Below, piece by piece: positions 1,347 through 8,971 of a DNA stretch of 14,400 nt; the first letter of the stretch is position 1; every line of letters starts with the position of its first letter. Origin of the DNA: a virus. Taxonomy: Duplodnaviria > Heunggongvirae > Uroviricota > Caudoviricetes. Where the stretch lies: IMG/VR virus record IMGVR_UViG_2778261036_000011. One strand, given 5' to 3'. The notes below the pieces were generated by a model. It did not search any database. It was not told the DNA's origin and was given only the letters and a program-made list of their open reading frames with translations. A program made the position numbers and the translations under genes.

Positions 1347-1881
1347 ATGGCTAATAAATAAAAGATTGAGGTATCAGTACCTTACACTGCTTGCATTCTC
1401 GATCCTGGCATTGCTTGCACTTTACCTATTGTACAGAAACACACCTAAAGTAAGTGTTAACTTTTTTGATTTTTATCATAAAAACTTACGAGGCTATCTC
1501 TTCTCCGGTTTTATTTCCGTGGGCTCATTTTTATTGAGCCTGCATACCTTTGTCATAATAAATTTACGCGATAAGGTTTTTGCAACTCAGGAATATAAGG
1601 AAATTTATAGCATTGCCACTGGTATACCTATTGACAAAATCAATGATAGTGTACTTTATAAACCTTTAGACAATTTATCCTCATTTATTAATACATCAAT
1701 ATTATGTTCTATCACAACAGCAATTGCACAATTCACTATTGGACTTTCAACTAATTTATATGCATGCTTATTTTGCGTATGGCTTGCAATACTAACGGTA
1801 TTTCTTTTATTACATTGCCTCATCATAATCAGACAAAATATTAAAATTTTATTAAAGCAACAGAGAAAAAAAGGGGGGTAA
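1333..1881 (+). CDS. Small integral membrane protein, 182 aa, about 4 predicted TM helices (cassette gene 2)
   Basis: Four hydrophobic stretches (YLTLLAFSILALLALYLLY, GYLFSGFISVGSFLLSLHTFVII, ILCSITTAIAQFTIGL, LYACLFCVWLAILTVFLLLHCLIII) and a basic C-terminus (RQNIKILLKQQRKK). ATG at 1333 overlaps gene 1 stop (1344..1346). Same low G+C. Confidence 0.6.
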   Translation: MPLYEWLINKRLRYQYLTLLAFSILALLALYLLYRNTPKVSVNFFDFYHKNLRGYLFSGFISVGSFLLSLHTFVIINLRDKVFATQEYKEIYSIATGIPIDKINDSVLYKPLDNLSSFINTSILCSITTAIAQFTIGLSTNLYACLFCVWLAILTVFLLLHCLIIIRQNIKILLKQQRKKGG

Positions 1882-1890
1882 TTCCCCCTA
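1866..1890 (-). terminator. Strong intrinsic terminator between convergent genes
   Basis: GGGGG(1874..1878)-taatt-CCCCC(1884..1888). On the minus strand the stem is followed by a 7-T run (complement of a1866..a1872). Sits 6 nt after the Q-like stop and overlaps the stop codon of the cassette membrane gene. Confidence 0.6.
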
Positions 1891-1893
1891 ATA

Positions 1894-2235
1894 TTACAAC
1901 ATTGAAAGCACACCATCCAGAAAACCAAGAGCTGTTTGCAACTCTTTTCTTATTGTCCCATCAGAACACTTCTGCTTCTTTGCAATAGTTCTTAGTGAGA
2001 TGCCGATAACAAAATGAGCAATAACCAACTCATACTCTTCGGGCTTATATTTCCGCAATCGCGCAACACAGCTGTCAATCATGATTCCTTCATCATCATC
2101 GCATTGTTGGCGTGTTTTCTTTCCATGAGGTAGTAAACCTTTAAACCCTGCAGCAACAGGCTGCCAGTCCACACCACTGTTATCTGCTGCAGCCCATGCA
2201 CCCCAGCGGTCCAATACTTCATACATATCACGCAT
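1894..2235 (-). CDS. Q-type late-gene antiterminator (short QuuD-like family)
   Basis: Start chosen at the ATG giving MRDMYEVLDRWGAWAA...AAGFKGL...CDDD...CVARLRKY, which matches my recollection of the DLP12 QuuD sequence; this is recollection, not a search. Follows the nin-region genes as Q does in lambdoid phages. The ORF track extends to a TTG at 2250. Confidence 0.55.
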   Translation of the reverse strand: MRDMYEVLDRWGAWAAADNSGVDWQPVAAGFKGLLPHGKKTRQQCDDDEGIMIDSCVARLRKYKPEEYELVIAHFVIGISLRTIAKKQKCSDGTIRKELQTALGFLDGVLSML

Positions 2236-2252
2236 CAACTTTCTCCACAAAA

Positions 2253-3248
2253 TCAGGCCAGCACGCCAATTGCCAGTGCACGATCGATAAAACGAAATAT
2301 CAGCTCCAGCTGGGAGCCATACTTCTCTTCAAATGCCACGGTATCCGCATGCAGTTCGTCATGGTGTTTTCTGCACAAAGGCAACACAAAAAGGTCATGC
2401 GCTTTTGTACCCATTCCACCCTGACCATGACCAATCAGGTGATGAGGATCGTCGGCTGGCTTACCACAACATGCACACGGCTGCGTCTTAACCCAGCGCG
2501 TGTACTTTTCATTAACCCAGCGGCGACGTTTTGGGCGTAACATAAAAGACTCCGGCGACTCCGGATCCACTTTCAGCGCCAGCACCTTTTTCGCCTTATC
2601 CTGGATGATGCTGGTGGCAGGAACCGAAGGCACAAGGTCACTTTCCCGGGTGACAGACGGCACAACAGGCTTCGGTAATCTCAGTGCCTTACGGGCTGCA
2701 CTTTCCGGTAAGGCATCCGCCAGATCATTACGAATCAGCCACCAGCACAGTTCCGGCATTGTCACAACGTGACTGTCATCAAAACCGAGATCACGGCGCA
2801 CAACAGATAACACCCAGCGGGCACAGTTATCCGTTGCCATTGATTCCAGCCGTTCCGTGAACTGATCGCGCAGCTGGTTATCGCAGTGCCAGCACAGACG
2901 GATTGCACCCGGAGCGTGTCGCATTGTGGTCATGTTCTCGCTGTGCCAGTCGGAATGAAGCCACTGGCAGCCTTTTTCACGAAGTAACCAGCTTTCAAGA
3001 CATTCCACGCCACCAGCACGACGGATCACTGCCTCATTGCGGAACACGGCCCGAACGGAAGGATCATCCGCCAGCGGTTGTGATGCCGCCGGAACGGCAC
3101 CACTAGCGAAAGATGAATAACGTTCCGGCTCAGGCTCCAGCAGGACACGCCCCTGCATAAACAGGGGCATCAGCTCTGAACCTGGCCTGAACAATACGAT
3201 CCCCATACGCGGGGCAATTTCAGGGGTCAGTAGTGCTCTCACGGTCAC
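2253..3248 (-). CDS. DUF968-type protein with C-terminal HNH-like zinc-finger motif
   Basis: 331 aa; C-terminus CACCGKPADDPHHLIGHGQGG...LCRKHHDELH fits a C-x2-C...HH...H HNH pattern; position and size fit the DUF968 family of lambdoid nin regions. GTG start at 3246..3248. Confidence 0.55.
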   Translation of the reverse strand: MTVRALLTPEIAPRMGIVLFRPGSELMPLFMQGRVLLEPEPERYSSFASGAVPAASQPLADDPSVRAVFRNEAVIRRAGGVECLESWLLREKGCQWLHSDWHSENMTTMRHAPGAIRLCWHCDNQLRDQFTERLESMATDNCARWVLSVVRRDLGFDDSHVVTMPELCWWLIRNDLADALPESAARKALRLPKPVVPSVTRESDLVPSVPATSIIQDKAKKVLALKVDPESPESFMLRPKRRRWVNEKYTRWVKTQPCACCGKPADDPHHLIGHGQGGMGTKAHDLFVLPLCRKHHDELHADTVAFEEKYGSQLELIFRFIDRALAIGVLA

Positions 3249-3249
3249 C

Positions 3250-4065
3250 TCAATGAACGGTATCGAGCAGCTTTAACAGCTCAGGGAATCGGGATTCGAA
3301 GAAATGCGGCTGCGTCTCGCGCGGATTTGCGGGACTGGTGATGTTCTTGCCGAACATGCAGCCTTTCGCCGTCAGCGACCAGAATTTTTTGATGTTGTTA
3401 ATCCCGGTACGGCTGTATCGTTCGCGCTGCTCGACGATCCCCAGCTTCACCATCTGGTGATATGCCTGATTAGCCGTCAGGCGGATACCATACTGCTTCA
3501 GCAGTGCACTCAGCGACAGCGTAGGGCGGCTTGAACCATCTGGCGCATCAGCAGGTGCATCAATGGCATAGATCGGCATAAGTTCAGGAAGACCAGCTAC
3601 CTTTGATAATTTCTGGTATGCACCAAGTTTCGAGGAGTTTGACAGATTTAGAGTCTTTGCTGCTGATTCAAGCAGAATGACCCCGGATTTAATTTTGTCG
3701 GATGTGGTTTCTTCTGGTGATGAATTATGAAGCGCATCAAAAGTACGTATCACTTTTAAGCTGAATGCCGGGCTGATCCACATTGCATATGCATAGACCA
3801 GCTCTTTACAGACATACGTCCCACCATTGCGCCCCTGAATGGTGATGACAGGAATACTACGGGAATCTCCCGTAGTTTCTTCTTCCAGTAATTCCACAAG
3901 AGCCTTCGTTTCAGGACGACGCATAAACTCGTGAACTTCCAGCGAACGGGAGGAGCGATTCTCACCAGCGGCAAGAAGAGCAGCTTTCTGAAGGTCGTTA
4001 AGACAGTAGTTAGATTCAAAGTACTGGCGCACAGAAACGCCATCAATTACAAGCAACTGATTCAT
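3250..4065 (-). CDS. KilA-N domain protein (Bro/antirepressor-like) with uncharacterised C-terminal domain
   Basis: N-terminal region (LLVIDGVSVRQYF...NYCLNDLQKAA...ITIQGRNGGTYVCKELVYAYAMWISPAFSLKV) matches the KilA-N signature. Start placed at the internal ATG (4063..4065), which has a GGAG ribosome-binding site about 9 nt upstream; the track ORF runs to 4161. Confidence 0.7.
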   Translation of the reverse strand: MNQLLVIDGVSVRQYFESNYCLNDLQKAALLAAGENRSSRSLEVHEFMRRPETKALVELLEEETTGDSRSIPVITIQGRNGGTYVCKELVYAYAMWISPAFSLKVIRTFDALHNSSPEETTSDKIKSGVILLESAAKTLNLSNSSKLGAYQKLSKVAGLPELMPIYAIDAPADAPDGSSRPTLSLSALLKQYGIRLTANQAYHQMVKLGIVEQRERYSRTGINNIKKFWSLTAKGCMFGKNITSPANPRETQPHFFESRFPELLKLLDTVH

Positions 4066-4151
4066 TGGTTTCTCCACAAATTTCGGGACTGCACTCCCTT
4101 TTCGTTGATGCAAGATGAACTTACTGCGATTTTTAATAGTTATCAAGGATA

Positions 4152-4171
4152 CACTGTTCATAAATACAGTA
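4152..4171. promoter_or_regulatory. SOS box (LexA operator) in the KilA-N gene promoter
   Basis: cACTGTtcataaatACAGta fits CTGT-N8-ACAG, about 16/20 to the E. coli consensus TACTGTATATATATACAGTA. Lies just downstream of a minus-strand promoter candidate (-35 TTGAGC at 4206..4211, 17-bp spacer, -10 TATTAC at 4183..4188). Confidence 0.55.
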
Positions 4172-4216
4172 TCTTTAACGAGGTAATACCCAAATTTAGG
4201 GTGTTGCTCAATTCCG

Positions 4217-4612
4217 TTACCGAGTTGCTAATTTGCAACTCGCTTTTTCGTACTTACTGATAGTGATCTCGACCTTCCCTTCCGGGATAACCGGTCCCCA
4301 CTCCACCAGCATTCTTTTCACCTGACTGTCGTCTTCCCACACACCCGCGTGGGTCAGGGCGTCAAACAGCGCCTTGTTATAGTTGTCCAGATCGCGGATC
4401 CGGTTATCCGGAGGAAACAACACGATCTCCACTGATGCAGGTGCCGACGTTGGTTTTGGCAGACGACGTAACTGCTCAACTATTGCTGCACACGCCGCGC
4501 TCTGGAATTTGCGCCCCGCCGCGCTTATCAGGCTCTTACCAGCAAACGCCCCTTTGTTGGGGTGTCGCCAGTACGTGTTCACGCTGGGCGGAAAAGGCAG
4601 GATCAGCTTCAT
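4217..4612 (-). CDS. rusA: RusA Holliday-junction resolvase
   Basis: 131 aa; LPFPPSVNTYWRH...RDLDNYNKALFDALTHAGVWEDDSQV matches the RusA signature including the catalytic acidic residues; typical nin-region position. Start overlaps the upstream stop (ATGA). Confidence 0.85.
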   Translation of the reverse strand: MKLILPFPPSVNTYWRHPNKGAFAGKSLISAAGRKFQSAACAAIVEQLRRLPKPTSAPASVEIVLFPPDNRIRDLDNYNKALFDALTHAGVWEDDSQVKRMLVEWGPVIPEGKVEITISKYEKASCKLATR

Positions 4613-4935
4613 ACTTTCAGGCCCCTCTCATGTAACCAGTGGGTTGCACGCAGCCTTGCGTTTTCCTCACCGGCAAGCAGTGAGTGGATAATCCCGACCG
4701 CCTCGCTGTCGTCGTCCTTCACCGCGGTATGAAGCGTTATCCCCCGGGCCACGCCACGCTTTATCGTGATGACGCCTTTTTTCTCCAGTGCGCGAAGATG
4801 CTCTACCGCTGCATTCACTGAACGGTATCCCAGCATGGTTGCCACCTCCTGATTGGTTGGCGGAAAGCCACGCTCTTTCTGATAAGAAATCAGCATATCC
4901 AGCACCTGCTGCTGGCATTGAGTTAATGTCGTCAT
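4609..4935 (-). CDS. LexA N-terminal DNA-binding-domain-only protein (no S24 peptidase domain)
   Basis: 108 aa; MTTLTQCQQQVLDMLISYQKERGFPPTNQEVATMLGYRSVNAAVEHLRALEKKGVITIKRGVARGITL aligns residue-for-residue with E. coli LexA 1..70 (MKALTARQQEVFDLI...[36 protein letters not shown]...SRGIRL). The C-terminal 35 aa have no Ala-Gly cleavage site or Ser/Lys dyad. Confidence 0.75.
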   Translation of the reverse strand: MTTLTQCQQQVLDMLISYQKERGFPPTNQEVATMLGYRSVNAAVEHLRALEKKGVITIKRGVARGITLHTAVKDDDSEAVGIIHSLLAGEENARLRATHWLHERGLKV

Positions 4936-5585
4936 GCCGCCATCTCCCTGACCAGTTTTTCCGCCTGCTGGCGAACCTGCGCCAGAAACGCCTCACCACA
5001 TGCCTCAAGTTCATCGCGCCCAATGTAGCTGATTGCCGGTCCCTTCCAGGTCTTGTCAAAAACAGCAATAGCACCAGCGAAAAAAGCTCCTGTCGGTACC
5101 TGCTTCTCGTCTTTCGGGATAAACCAGACAGGCAGTTCAAAACCAATACGCCCGCGAATAAAAGTAATATGATCTGCATCTTCCGGCCACCACACTTCGC
5201 TGGTGGCAGCTTTGATCAGGAAAACATAGCGCCCGCCTTTATCACGCATGGCACTGGCATGCTTCATGATGTAACGCATGCCAGTGATGTATTTCCCCTC
5301 ATGCTGACTGGCGCGGCTGTATGGGGGATTACCAAAGGCAGCACCTTTAAGCTCCGCAAGACGTTCTGACCAGTCATGCGCCAGCGCGTTATCTTCCGCC
5401 GTGTAATACGCGGCACATTTGGCGTTATCACCGTCAGTAAACAGATCCAGAACAAACGGGCCAAACAGGGTGTTAATTCCCCAGAAAATGTTGTCCGGCG
5501 TGCGCCACTGATCGCCCACTTCCTTCAGTTCATGGGCTGGTTTGTTCCGCAGTTCCACCAGCGCCTGGCAATATTTATTACTCAT
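4932..5585 (-). CDS. Phage DNA N6-adenine methyltransferase (orphan, Dam-like)
   Basis: Contains the NPPY catalytic motif (AAFGNPPYS) of N6-adenine methyltransferases. Start at ATG 5583..5585 shares one nucleotide with the upstream stop (TAATG); an in-frame start at 5618 is less likely. Confidence 0.8.
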   Translation of the reverse strand: MSNKYCQALVELRNKPAHELKEVGDQWRTPDNIFWGINTLFGPFVLDLFTDGDNAKCAAYYTAEDNALAHDWSERLAELKGAAFGNPPYSRASQHEGKYITGMRYIMKHASAMRDKGGRYVFLIKAATSEVWWPEDADHITFIRGRIGFELPVWFIPKDEKQVPTGAFFAGAIAVFDKTWKGPAISYIGRDELEACGEAFLAQVRQQAEKLVREMAA

Positions 5586-6079
5586 TAAGCCCCCACGTAA
5601 TTCCCTGACAGATACCACTCTTCACCCGATGCAGCGCGCTTGCTGCTTTTCCGTAAGCACCGCTCACGACGCGCCAGAAAATTGTTTTGTTCTGGCTGGG
5701 AGTGGCTTTCACGGAATGCCGCCATCCACACGGTTGCAGCACGACGGTATAAGCCCCTGGACTCCAGTTCTTCAGCCTGGCGGGTCAGGCACAAAATCAC
5801 CCGTGGATCGTTAGTGCCGACATAGAAATTGCGCACAGGTCTGGTTTCTCGAACTGGTTGTGGTTCCGGTTCCTGCGCTCTCTCAGTCAGGCGCGGGAAA
5901 TGTCTGCGTGTATCTCCTTCACAACGGTGAGCCACACGCCCACTCTGACGTAACTTGCTTGCTGACTGCAGAACGCGCTGCCGTGAGTAACCTGCAAAAG
6001 CATCCGCAATGTCTCCGGAAGTACACCCCGGATGGGCTTCAATGAATTTCTGAACTTCATTCAAAAGACTCATGATCAC
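5585..6079 (-). CDS. Putative regulator with PerC-like C-terminal motif
   Basis: 164 aa; C-terminal AEELESRGLYRRAATVWMAAF resembles the PerC/Pch GLWRRAA motif as I recall it. Start overlaps the O-like stop (ATGA). Confidence 0.4.
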   Translation of the reverse strand: MIMSLLNEVQKFIEAHPGCTSGDIADAFAGYSRQRVLQSASKLRQSGRVAHRCEGDTRRHFPRLTERAQEPEPQPVRETRPVRNFYVGTNDPRVILCLTRQAEELESRGLYRRAATVWMAAFRESHSQPEQNNFLARRERCLRKSSKRAASGEEWYLSGNYVGA

Positions 6080-7068
6080 CCCCTGAATCCTGCCGGGATC
6101 TGGCTGTAGTCCACGTTGTCGTAACTGGACTTGAAGTACGGGTCTTCGCGTTTTTCGGTGTACGTGCTGACGGACGGCGATAAGCGCAGGGAAAGCTCAT
6201 CCCATTTTTCCCGCAGCTTCGACGGGCTGAGCACGTTACGGCACCAGAACGGATCGCGGCTGACGCGGCAGTACATCTCGCAGATTTGTTTGTGAGTACG
6301 CCCATCCTGTACACACATCAGGCGAATTTCGTTTGCCCAGGCTGTCCAGTTCGGTTCTTTAGGACGTACCACTTCGCCGTCACATTCGGCGGCCTGCTCG
6401 TACAGAGCGATGATTTTTTTCCAGAGCCACTGTGCGCAGGTCAAATCATCCTGCGTTCCCCACTGGCGCTTTTTAGGGCTGAATACAACCGCATCAGGAT
6501 GGCGAGTTAAAAAATCCTGTTCAGCCATCTGCGTGTCCGGTTGCGAAGCGTCCGGACGAGAAGAGGTTTTATTCTCTGTAGTAATCTCTGTTGTATTCTC
6601 TGTAAGATCATTGGGCCATTTTGACCCGATGACAGCGTGTCGTTTTGAACCAATGGATCGTGTCATTTTGCGCCCATCCATCAGGTCACTTTGACCCGAT
6701 GGAGAAGTGCATTTTGACCTAATGGATTCGTTCACTTTGACCTCTTCTAAAAGCTCACTTTCATAGTTGATCGTGTAGAAGTTGGTCATGTCACGCTTCG
6801 ATTTATTGAGTTGCTCGCGACGCAAAACCCCAAGTGATTTCAGGCTTGCAAATGTGCGTTTCAGAGTGGACTCTGACCAGAACGGAAACTGCTCCAGCCA
6901 CTGTTCTGTCGTGTTATAAACCCAGCGAATTCCGCCATGCTCAGTGCCGGAATTCGTTTCATTCAGCCAGTAATGAAGCTGCTGCAACACAATTGCCTCA
7001 TTCAGACCAATACGGCATGCAAGATCACGATTTATCACAATGGGCTGGGATGTCATTAACAGGCTCAT
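6076..7068 (-). CDS. Replication initiation protein (lambda O-like) with iterons embedded in its linker
   Basis: 330 aa; N-terminal winged-helix-like region (LNEAIVLQQLHYWLNE...), repetitive linker encoded by the iterons (LTENTTEITTENKT...SKRHAVIGSKWPNDL), and a Trp-rich C-terminal domain. GAGG ribosome-binding site before ATG 7068. Confidence 0.65.
   Translation of the reverse strand: MSLLMTSQPIVINRDLACRIGLNEAIVLQQLHYWLNETNSGTEHGGIRWVYNTTEQWLEQFPFWSESTLKRTFASLKSLGVLRREQLNKSKRDMTNFYTINYESELLEEVKVNESIRSKCTSPSGQSDLMDGRKMTRSIGSKRHAVIGSKWPNDLTENTTEITTENKTSSRPDASQPDTQMAEQDFLTRHPDAVVFSPKKRQWGTQDDLTCAQWLWKKIIALYEQAAECDGEVVRPKEPNWTAWANEIRLMCVQDGRTHKQICEMYCRVSRDPFWCRNVLSPSKLREKWDELSLRLSPSVSTYTEKREDPYFKSSYDNVDYSQIPAGFRG
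6572..6747. repeat. Phage origin of replication: six 23-bp-periodic iterons plus three 12-bp-periodic repeats
   Basis: Iterons cattttgacccgatg(6617), cgttttgaaccaatgg(6641), cattttgcgcccatcc(6664), cactttgacccgatgg(6687), cattttgacctaatgg(6710), cactttgacctcttc(6733). Adjacent TCTCTGT(A/T) repeats at 6573, 6585, 6597. All lie inside the O-like coding sequence, as in lambda. Confidence 0.7.
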
Positions 7069-8024: not shown

Positions 8025-8222
8025 TTATGCCGCAGCACTGTTAGTCTTTTGATATAAAGACACGTCAACTTTCAGTTTCCCGTTAGTAATTTTTTCTAAC
8101 TGGTACGCTCGGCCTTCAGGAATAATCTCAGGCCACTCTGAAACAGACGGATGCTTAATACCTAGGGCTTCGGCGGTTTTACAAACTCCGCCGAAATAAT
8201 TAATCACGTCGGATTTCCGCAT
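8025..8222 (-). CDS. cro: Cro-like repressor
   Basis: 65 aa basic protein with an HTH-like segment (VCKTAEALGIKHPSVSEW), transcribed divergently from cI directly from the operator region. Confidence 0.65.
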   Translation of the reverse strand: MRKSDVINYFGGVCKTAEALGIKHPSVSEWPEIIPEGRAYQLEKITNGKLKVDVSLYQKTNSAAA

Positions 8223-8254
8223 TTCTGTCTCCCGTTAAATTACGTTAAGCAGGA

Positions 8255-8319
8255 ATGTAGGATATCCAACATATCAATGTCAAGAATCCTACATGAGCAT
8301 GTGGTAGGATTGCCTACAT
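8255..8319. promoter_or_regulatory. oR operator cluster with divergent pR and pRM
   Basis: Three operator sites: ATGTAGGATATCCAACAT (8255..8272), right half-site ATCCTACAT (8286..8294), TGGTAGGATTGCCTACAT (8302..8319). pR -35 TTGACA on the minus strand at 8278..8283, with -10 about 17 bp downstream overlapping the first operator. Confidence 0.6.
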
Positions 8320-8971
8320 GATGAACATGAGTGATCGTATTCGCCAAAGGCGAAAAGAACTGAACCTGACACAACAAGCACTGGCTGATTTGACTGGTGT
8401 GAACCGTGTCACGGTTACTGGATGGGAAAAGGACGACTACCAACCAAATGGAGCCAACCTTCAAGCCCTAGCCAACGCACTTAAATGCGATCCTCTGTGG
8501 CTTGTTAGCGGAAAAGGCTCGCCTGAACCAAAGATAAATCTAAAACCTGAAATATTCGCAGTTAAAAAAGTCCCCCTCATCTCGTGGGTTCAGGCGGGTT
8601 CATGGACAATGACGGAGCCTGGTGTCAGGAAAGAAGATGCTGAAGAGTGGGTTTATACTACCGCCCTTGTATCAGAAATGGCATTTGCACTACGGGTCCG
8701 TGGTGATTCAATGACCAATCCCCTCGGCTCACCATCGATACCAGAAGGTTCTATCGTTATCGTAGAGCCAGATATTATTGATACAGAGTGTATTAACGGA
8801 AAAATCGTTGTTGCCCATATCAATGGTGGGCAAGAAGCGACACTCAAAAAATTTGTTGAGGACTGGCCGAACAGGTATCTCGTCCCACTAAATCCTAACT
8901 ATAAAACTATTGAATGCGGTGAGAACTGCAGAATAGTTGGTCTTGTCAAACAAGTAATAATGGATTTTTGA
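8318..8971 (+). CDS. cI: cI-type prophage repressor (HTH plus S24 LexA-like autopeptidase)
   Basis: 217 aa; N-terminal HTH (LTQQALADLTGVNRVTVTGWE), Ala-Gly cleavage site (VQAGSW), Ser/Lys dyad (RVRGDSM ... ATLKKF) in the C-terminal domain. Confidence 0.9.
   Translation: MMNMSDRIRQRRKELNLTQQALADLTGVNRVTVTGWEKDDYQPNGANLQALANALKCDPLWLVSGKGSPEPKINLKPEIFAVKKVPLISWVQAGSWTMTEPGVRKEDAEEWVYTTALVSEMAFALRVRGDSMTNPLGSPSIPEGSIVIVEPDIIDTECINGKIVVAHINGGQEATLKKFVEDWPNRYLVPLNPNYKTIECGENCRIVGLVKQVIMDF

Follow-up and report, generated by a model that had tools for sequence, protein, structure and literature searches.

Does a prophage that encodes a LexA-like protein of its own use it on a LexA (SOS) box lying about 440 bp away in the same operon? 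This question arises in a stretch of 14,400 nucleotides (nt; hereafter the window) of the IMG/VR record IMGVR_UViG_2778261036_000011 (Caudoviricetes), which corresponds to the early-right arm of a lambdoid prophage in its minus-strand reading. Prophage induction, the release of Shiga toxin, mutagenesis, and tolerance to antibiotics are all under the control of the SOS response. We found that the gene for the LexA-like protein of 108 amino acids (aa) and the box, which lies upstream of a gene for a KilA-N domain protein (kilA-N), are separable and show no specific pairing. The explanation that we favor, with confidence that is about evenly balanced, is that host LexA gates an internal promoter at the box and that, separately, the phage protein, a RecA-proof LexA paralogue, probably reads CTGT-type sites. 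The features that carry this argument are:

4609 to 4935, minus strand: LexA-like gene (108 aa), encoding a winged helix-turn-helix (residues 1-68), a flexible linker (69-74), and conserved helices (75-87 and 93-102), with no S24 domain
4152 to 4171, no strand assigned: LexA (SOS) box, CACTGTTCATAAATACAGTA, or TACTGTATTTATGAACAGTG in minus-strand reading, with the core CTGT-N8-ACAG at 4154-4169
4118 to 4146, minus strand: best sigma-70 candidate, "PkilA", with -35 TTGATA (4146-4141), a 17-bp spacer, -10 TAAGTT (4123-4118), and a predicted start near 4111
4166 to 4193, minus strand: weaker alternative promoter, TTGGGT-16-TACTGT (score 6.5), with its -10 inside the box
3250 to 4065, minus strand: KilA-N domain protein (271 aa), with the Shine-Dalgarno sequence GGAG at 4075-4072

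A LexA paralogue without the protease domain

The 108-aa protein matches the Pfam family LexA_DNA_bind (PF01726) with an E-value of 3e-19 over profile positions 1-65 of 65, and its best PDB sequence match is 1lea, the N-terminal domain of Escherichia coli LexA (E = 7e-16), where its recognition helix RSVNAAVEHLRAL aligns with the E. coli counterpart. Over residues 2-69, the identity to E. coli LexA is 45-51%. The AlphaFold model (mean predicted local distance difference test score, or pLDDT, of 79) has a low-confidence linker at residues 69-74 and confident helices at 75-87 and 93-102. When this model was compared with LexA in the DNA complex 3jso by Foldseek, and likewise with 1lea, the root-mean-square deviation was 1.0-1.2 Å over 66-68 residues, with 51% identity. 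The Pfam search gave no match to the S24 peptidase domain (PF00717) or its Ser-Lys dyad in the protein, whose chain ends at residue 108. The NCBIfam lexA equivalog TIGR00498 matched only at positions 1-91 of 203 and, at 71 bits, fell under its cut-off of 110.95. Because there is no protease domain, RecA-stimulated self-cleavage is impossible. These results agree with an earlier reading of the window (the sequence-only reading), which had described the protein as the DNA-binding domain of LexA, recognition helix included, and as uncleavable via RecA for want of an S24 domain. The protein is labeled "LexA family transcriptional regulator" in databases; our literature search found no published study of this enterobacterial protein or of SOS boxes in nin regions, and the paper on Gifsy-1 RtcR makes no mention of a LexA box, KilA, RusA, or DUF968.

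An exhaustive profile search combined with cluster look-ups recovered full-length relatives with 40-50% identity in Cronobacter, Kosakonia, Enterobacter, Cedecea, Klebsiella, and Citrobacter. The tail pattern EAxxxIRALLxxxxxARxRAxxWLxxRG is kept across the family. A decaying gene fragment was considered and rejected, as conservation between genera (40-67% identity) extends over the whole protein and does not stop short of the tail. Also rejected was a functional LexA cleavage site, suggested by the alignment of "LLAGE" with "VAAGE" of LexA; the Ala-Gly at 88-89 is replaced in relatives by LLANE, LLVGE, LLTRK, or MVERE and is taken as a vestige because it is not conserved among them. By these sequence patterns, the family is a distinct, selected LexA paralogue that joins the LexA reading head to a new small helical module.

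The residues with which LexA contacts DNA are Ser39, Asn41, Ala42, Glu44, and Glu45 (PMC3091678). Four of these five are present in the 108-aa protein (S39, N41, A42, and E45), and position 44 is Val. Among the relatives with 40-50% identity, S39 and N41 never vary, Glu predominates at position 45, and H46 is nearly invariant. Because four of the five contacts are kept, the most likely target of the protein is CTGT-type DNA resembling SOS boxes; it probably binds as a dimer, with the tail joining the two subunits. It shares with E. coli LexA the fold (about 1 Å) and the recognition-helix residues S39, N41, A42, and E45 but differs in having neither the S24 domain nor the Ser-Lys dyad, such that any dimerization must use the helical tail. 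Such a role for the tail is plausible. The protein is a LexA N-terminal-domain paralogue in which the protease/dimerization domain has been swapped for a short two-helix module; made from the early promoter pR during lytic growth and beyond inactivation by RecA, it could serve as a non-inducible LexA substitute after the host LexA has been destroyed.

A bolder reading, which we regard as tentative and on balance doubtful, is a phage-encoded override of the SOS response, in which such RecA-proof paralogues would take the SOS boxes vacated by cleaved LexA during lytic growth. On the host side, it might, again doubtfully, re-repress the SOS regulon; this would extend to SOS toxins and colicins as well as to antirepressors that LexA controls in rival prophages. 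Its target on the phage side could, with similarly low confidence, be the single strong box of the phage itself, which is located at kilA-N/Q in the window, at a methylase-like gene in the Shigella phage SfV, and inside cI in SfII. If a non-inducible LexA is indeed carried by about two in five E. coli genomes, induced prophages would reshape both how the host responds to damage and what becomes of other prophages in the same cell.

We scanned for boxes five complete genomes that have the LexA-like gene, together with lambda, which lacks it; this sample is too small for an association test. Four of these five genomes have exactly one near-consensus box: in PhiR49_1 and SfIV, it is upstream of kilA-N; in SfII, it is within cI; and in SfV, it covers the first codons of a methylase-like gene located downstream of Q. 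The fifth, coliphage mEp460, has the methylase box and two boxes at a dinI-like gene. Nothing in lambda exceeds 15.6 bits. The single boxes in four of the five genomes keep a looser link between gene and box alive.

Some of these boxes deserve description in their own right. The methylase box, TACTGTAAAAATAAACAGTG, is a 23-bit LexA box that takes up codons 3-9 of a gene resembling those for DNA methyltransferases, which lies between Q and the lysis genes; the box occurs in phages from several genera: SfV (L164, 34170-34189), mEp460 (L167, 39700-39719), locus L139 (6179-6198), and also loci L004, L014, and L032. The only strong box in SfII (L166) is the near-perfect TACTGTTTTTATATACAGTA (29167-29186, 26.9 bits), which is located within cI, some 210 nt from the start of the coding sequence. 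The best match in lambda (L168), TACTGGATCTATCAACAGGA at 38660-38679 (15.6 bits), is located in the short gap between cII and O and is probably due to chance.

Several observations speak against binding of CTGT-type sites by the 108-aa protein. Position 44 is never Glu across the family, being V, F, A, T, or L, and one relative with 65% identity is altered at positions 42-45. The dimerization module is unlike that of LexA, and half-site spacing or specificity may differ with it. Furthermore, one of the two closest precedents for this locus is gp6 of GIL01, a tectivirus of Bacillus thuringiensis, the other being the LexA-controlled modules of the Gifsy prophages. The former is a truncated LexA homologue that consists of little more than the winged helix-turn-helix and lacks any additional C-terminal module (Fornelos et al., 2018; PMC6182141). 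It has an altered specificity for which K38 is critical, binds the palindrome GaCACAnnTGTGtC, and activates the late promoter P3, which shows that truncated LexA homologues can gain a new target and activate transcription (PMC6182141). Compared by description rather than by sequence, the two proteins are alike in being phage-encoded LexA winged helix-turn-helix proteins without an autocleavage domain that are expressed early in lytic growth. They differ in that the 108-aa protein keeps the LexA recognition residues except E44, has a conserved two-helix tail, and belongs to the nin operon of a lambdoid phage whose late genes are controlled by Q.

It is accordingly conceivable, albeit unlikely in our estimate, that the specificity of the LexA-like protein has diverged, like that of gp6, and that the protein regulates, perhaps activates, some other phage or host site unrelated to SOS boxes. 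The hydrophobic residue found at position 44 throughout the family and the new dimerization module, which could impose another half-site geometry, fit such a divergence, as does the example set by gp6 with its own palindrome and late promoter. It is opposed by the invariance of S39 and N41 and the retention of E45 and H46 in most relatives down to 40% identity, by the lack of any other enriched CTGT/ACAG arrangement in the window at spacings of 0-20, and by the fact that Q already drives late transcription in lambdoid phages.

The SOS box and the candidate promoter that it adjoins

With a LexA matrix, the box at 4152-4171 scored 21.4 bits, and the runner-up site in the window scored 8.4 bits; none of 2000 shuffles reached 21.4. 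The box matches the consensus at 16 of 20 positions with an exact core and has a heterology-type index of 5.5; in both score and index, it is comparable to the recA and sulA boxes. The core CTGT-N8-ACAG occurs once in the 14.4 kb. Both the near-consensus quality and the absence of a second such site in the window, which the sequence-only reading had noted from a scan by hand, were thus corroborated. Other arrangements of CTGT and ACAG in the window (inverted, everted, or direct, with spacings of 0-20) yielded nothing notable apart from the SOS box and, in the O gene, iteron-like repeats. The latter are two copies of CTGT-N8-CTGT within the O-like replication gene, at 6576 and 6588 (window 6576-6607), and are probably origin iterons.

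An identical box is present in all 43 IMG/VR loci that have this kilA-N allele. Deep conservation was nevertheless dropped as evidence, as copies of the allele never show less than 95.8% identity, and diverged kilA-N alleles were used instead. The closest of these have near-boxes at the same position, namely, GTGG-N8-ACAG (14.6 bits), GTGG-N8-CCAG (13.1 bits), and GTGT-N8-ACAG (9.2 bits), in which the first core base is G instead of C. These near-boxes coincide in part with the ribosome-binding site and the ATG start of a reading frame further upstream. Because near-boxes occupy the same position in diverged alleles, the perfect box seems to have been derived from an older half-site.

The PkilA candidate ranks among the top 0.01% of all positions in the window, and a simple promoter scorer that puts pR first places it fourth on the minus strand. 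The box spans about -60 to -41 relative to this candidate and ends 5 bp upstream of its -35. The claim that the box belongs to a kilA-N promoter stands in part: it adjoins a plausible promoter, but it does not lie just after one, since the -35 of the best candidate is downstream of the box. In seven relatives from Kluyvera, Leclercia, Citrobacter, and Raoultella, with kilA-N alleles of 74-88% identity, -35-like and -10-like hexamers are found at a 17-bp spacing, and the -10 has TA...T in every case. Downstream of these hexamers are a conserved hairpin and then a GTGGAGA Shine-Dalgarno sequence. Between kilA-N and Q (4065 to 1894), no convincing terminator was found. Because there is none before Q and a strong one after it, PkilA transcripts should include Q.

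In the explanation that we favor, the box would be an operator for host LexA adjoining the -35 of an internal promoter for kilA-N, DUF968, and Q. This promoter would be kept repressed in a lysogen by LexA, which would sit at about -60 to -41 and extend to the -35; upon DNA damage, PkilA would fire independently of cI. If such a LexA-gated promoter into Q exists, it would provide a cI-independent route from DNA damage to the late genes and, in relatives that carry Shiga toxin (Stx) genes, to toxin. The perfect box itself would be a derived feature of one mosaic allele of 418 bp.

The Gifsy prophages offer the second precedent. Gifsy-1, -2, and -3 have a LexA-controlled dinI-gfoA/gftA antirepressor module that is located downstream of the replication genes and preceded by a palindrome (Lemire et al., 2011; PMC3121763). 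Other LexA-controlled antirepressors are tum of coliphage 186 and antC of N15 (PMC3121763). All of these have an SOS box on a promoter within the phage genome and outside the immunity region, where the box of the window adjoins a candidate promoter, and the position of the Gifsy module downstream of replication genes and behind a palindrome is much as in the window. However, those systems combine small antirepressors with non-cleavable repressors, whereas the window has a 271-aa KilA-N protein of DNA-binding type followed by DUF968 and Q, and its cI is of the self-cleaving S24 type.

On the other side of the balance, LexA boxes usually overlap the -35, -10, or +1 of a promoter. Here, the center of the box is at about -50, upstream of the -35, and repression could be weak or absent. 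Both the LexA matrix, symmetrised from 27 E. coli boxes, and the promoter frequencies in the scorer are reconstructions. The box-bearing allele diverges by at most about 4%, hence the conservation of the box carries little weight.

Another view, which we rate as improbable, is that the box is regulatory noise or acts otherwise, either because no active promoter exists or because LexA binds at -50 without repressing. In one variant, the site might be tolerated since the ancestral ATGAACAGTG of the upstream reading frame holds its right half constant. A stricter promoter scan of the window found no promoter at the PkilA position, the box position is atypical, and the GTGG-N8-ACAG and GTGG-N8-CCAG near-boxes overlap the Shine-Dalgarno sequence and ATG of that frame. 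However, 16 of 20 matches with both cores perfect would be unlikely to arise from a half-site without selection, as the shuffles indicate, and box-like sites recur upstream of unrelated kilA-N alleles (see below). If neither LexA nor the 108-aa protein binds as predicted, what remains is an annotated domain and a chance-looking site.

The leader between the candidate promoter and kilA-N has features of its own:

4085 to 4098, minus strand: leader hairpin GGGA-GTGCAG-TCCC; conserved versions that vary in the stem but share the TGCAG apex precede kilA-N homologues

The stems differ yet stay complementary, as in GGGA/TCCC, GGGC/GCCC, GGCGG/CCGCC, and longer versions. The hairpin is found about 20-40 nt upstream of the kilA-N start in loci L004, L005, L007, L008, L011-L014, L024, L028, L033, L034, and L041. 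It precedes the kilA-N ribosome-binding site across the Enterobacterales, with T(G/A)TACGG loops instead in Proteus and Morganella, and in SfV-type phages it lies within the 3' end of rusA. The hairpin has no match in Rfam and could be a boxB-like or translational-control RNA element.

The kilA-N start had been placed at 4161; the ATG at 4065-4063 behind the GGAG Shine-Dalgarno sequence is more likely. The open frame on the minus strand from 4161 to 4066 begins with an ATG inside the SOS box (4161-4159) and continues in frame into kilA-N, giving a 303-aa form in some annotations. Relatives (L004, L008, L173, and L177) have an upstream open reading frame (ORF) or extension preceded by a Shine-Dalgarno sequence, with a conserved peptide (..GSNV..CKRNGRAGP..) in which the differences are mostly synonymous; in Leclercia, the end of the upstream ORF and the start of kilA-N overlap as ATGA. 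This ORF may encode a leader peptide.

Distribution of the box and of the LexA-like gene

The box belongs to a segment with a mosaic origin, as the homology to the SfV/Stx2 type is interrupted between 3823 and 4240:

3823 to 4240, minus strand: mosaic segment (418 bp) of the allele shared by the window, SfIV, and PhiR49_1, containing the box, the candidate promoter, the leader, and the first ~80 codons of kilA-N
4221 to 4242, plus strand: palindrome CGAGTTGC-TAATTT-GCAACTCG with an 8-bp stem, in the last rusA codons at the left mosaic boundary

This palindrome is terminator-like only on the plus strand, where it has a T-run, and thus antisense to the operon. In phages of the SfV/Stx2 type, kilA-N follows rusA by 20 bp, without the gap and without the box.

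The box-bearing segment was found in five phage records and in 187 of 5426 complete E. coli genomes (3.4%), always with at least 95.8% identity. The LexA-like gene is present in 2233 of the same 5426 genomes (41%). It occurs with no box at kilA-N in SfV, SfII, and Stx2 phages. Throughout the Enterobacteriaceae, it is a constant part of a block with the order methylase-LexA-like-RusA-KilA-N-DUF968-Q, which is kept in loci of Citrobacter, Kluyvera, Cedecea, Leclercia, Raoultella, and Buttiauxella, mostly with no box at kilA-N. Conversely, two of the 43 box-bearing loci (L094 and L097) have no LexA-like gene.

Box-like sites were also found 75-92 nt upstream of kilA-N in Edwardsiella (19.1 bits), Erwinia (L028; 16.4 bits), and Serratia (14.5 bits). 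The Erwinia site, judged by eye, overlaps the -10 of a TTGCCA-17-TATATT candidate, and neither the Erwinia nor the Serratia locus has a LexA-like gene within 2.5 kb. Within 200 nt upstream of kilA-N in 38 species-representative loci, five sites of at least 13 bits were observed vs. 0.23 expected from the flanks as background. This speaks for the favored explanation, but the enrichment is overstated, as AT-rich intergenic DNA is compared with a mostly coding background. Because the gene and the box each occur without the other, the conserved job of the protein cannot be acting on this particular box.

The KilA-N protein itself gives little reason to expect an antirepressor, which the sequence-only reading had made of it. 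None of the 2728 KilA-N-related clusters bears an antirepressor name in any source, and the PHROGs label of the family is transcriptional regulator. The structural model (pLDDT 76) has an N-terminal KilA-N domain, long linking helices, and a C-terminal alpha/beta domain. A fold search linked the N-terminal part to the Mbp1/APSES DNA-binding domain and the C-terminal part to PadR- or DnaD-type winged helices, although all of these hits are weak (E > 0.1). The model looks like a two-domain DNA-binding protein, and a role as antirepressor is conceivable but not supported. Moreover, induction needs no antirepressor because cI has an S24 domain with the motifs QAG, GDSM, and LKKF (Peptidase_S24, E = 3.7e-25).

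That reading had further proposed a dedicated feedback loop, in which host LexA controls a KilA-N antirepressor and the uncleavable mimic re-silences the same promoter after induction. We consider it a poor candidate: the short distance between the two features in one operon, the presence of the LexA-like gene in 41 of the 43 box-bearing loci, and an Edwardsiella contig (L020) where a box-preceded kilA-N is directly followed by a LexA-like gene are in its favor, but the gene outnumbers the box about 12-fold and is equally present beside box-less kilA-N alleles, boxes or box-like sites occur without it in L094, L097, Erwinia, and Serratia, cI is self-cleaving, KilA-N lacks an antirepressor signature, and, once pR is on, read-through reaches kilA-N regardless of an internal promoter.

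Genomic setting of the two features

The window is highly similar to Shigella phages SfIV, SfV, and SfII, to Stx2 phages, and to coliphage mEp460. The prophage is a lambdoid one of the SfIV/SfV type, and both features are within its nin (delayed-early) region. The surrounding genes and signals are:

8318 to 8971, plus strand: cI repressor of the self-cleaving type, with profile matches to HTH_3 and Peptidase_S24
8254 to 8283, minus strand: pR candidate TTGACA-18-TACATT, upstream of cro, the transcription source for the LexA-like gene
8025 to 8222, minus strand: cro
4932 to 5618, minus strand: phage Dam methyltransferase gene, with its stop overlapping the ATG of the LexA-like gene
4217 to 4612, minus strand: RusA resolvase gene, with its ATG overlapping the stop of the LexA-like gene
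2253 to 3248, minus strand: DUF968/HNH protein gene, directly 3' of kilA-N
1894 to 2250, minus strand: Q antiterminator gene, the last gene within reach of a PkilA transcript
1872 to 1889, minus strand: strong intrinsic terminator, immediately 3' of Q

Between cro and dam are, in order, a CII-like gene, the O-like replication gene, and a PerC-like gene. Because of their start/stop overlaps, dam, the LexA-like gene, and rusA form one translationally coupled unit inside the pR operon, in line with the earlier assignment of the LexA-like gene to the lytic operon. An intergenic gap of about 150 bp separates rusA from kilA-N. The promoter scorer found no credible promoter just upstream of dam (scores < 2). 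A lysogen promoter at dam, which is annotated in SfV and would express the LexA-like gene in lysogens, was rejected, as the equivalent window position scores in this range.

At 420-1881 on the plus strand, opposite to and facing Q, are two overlapping ORFs of 308 and 182 aa, the second of which is hydrophobic. They belong to PHROG 2802 (function unassigned) and received no assignment from Pfam or PADLOC, and PADLOC reported nothing meaningful. The two ORFs share with Q a common bidirectional terminator at 1872-1889 and look like a moron.

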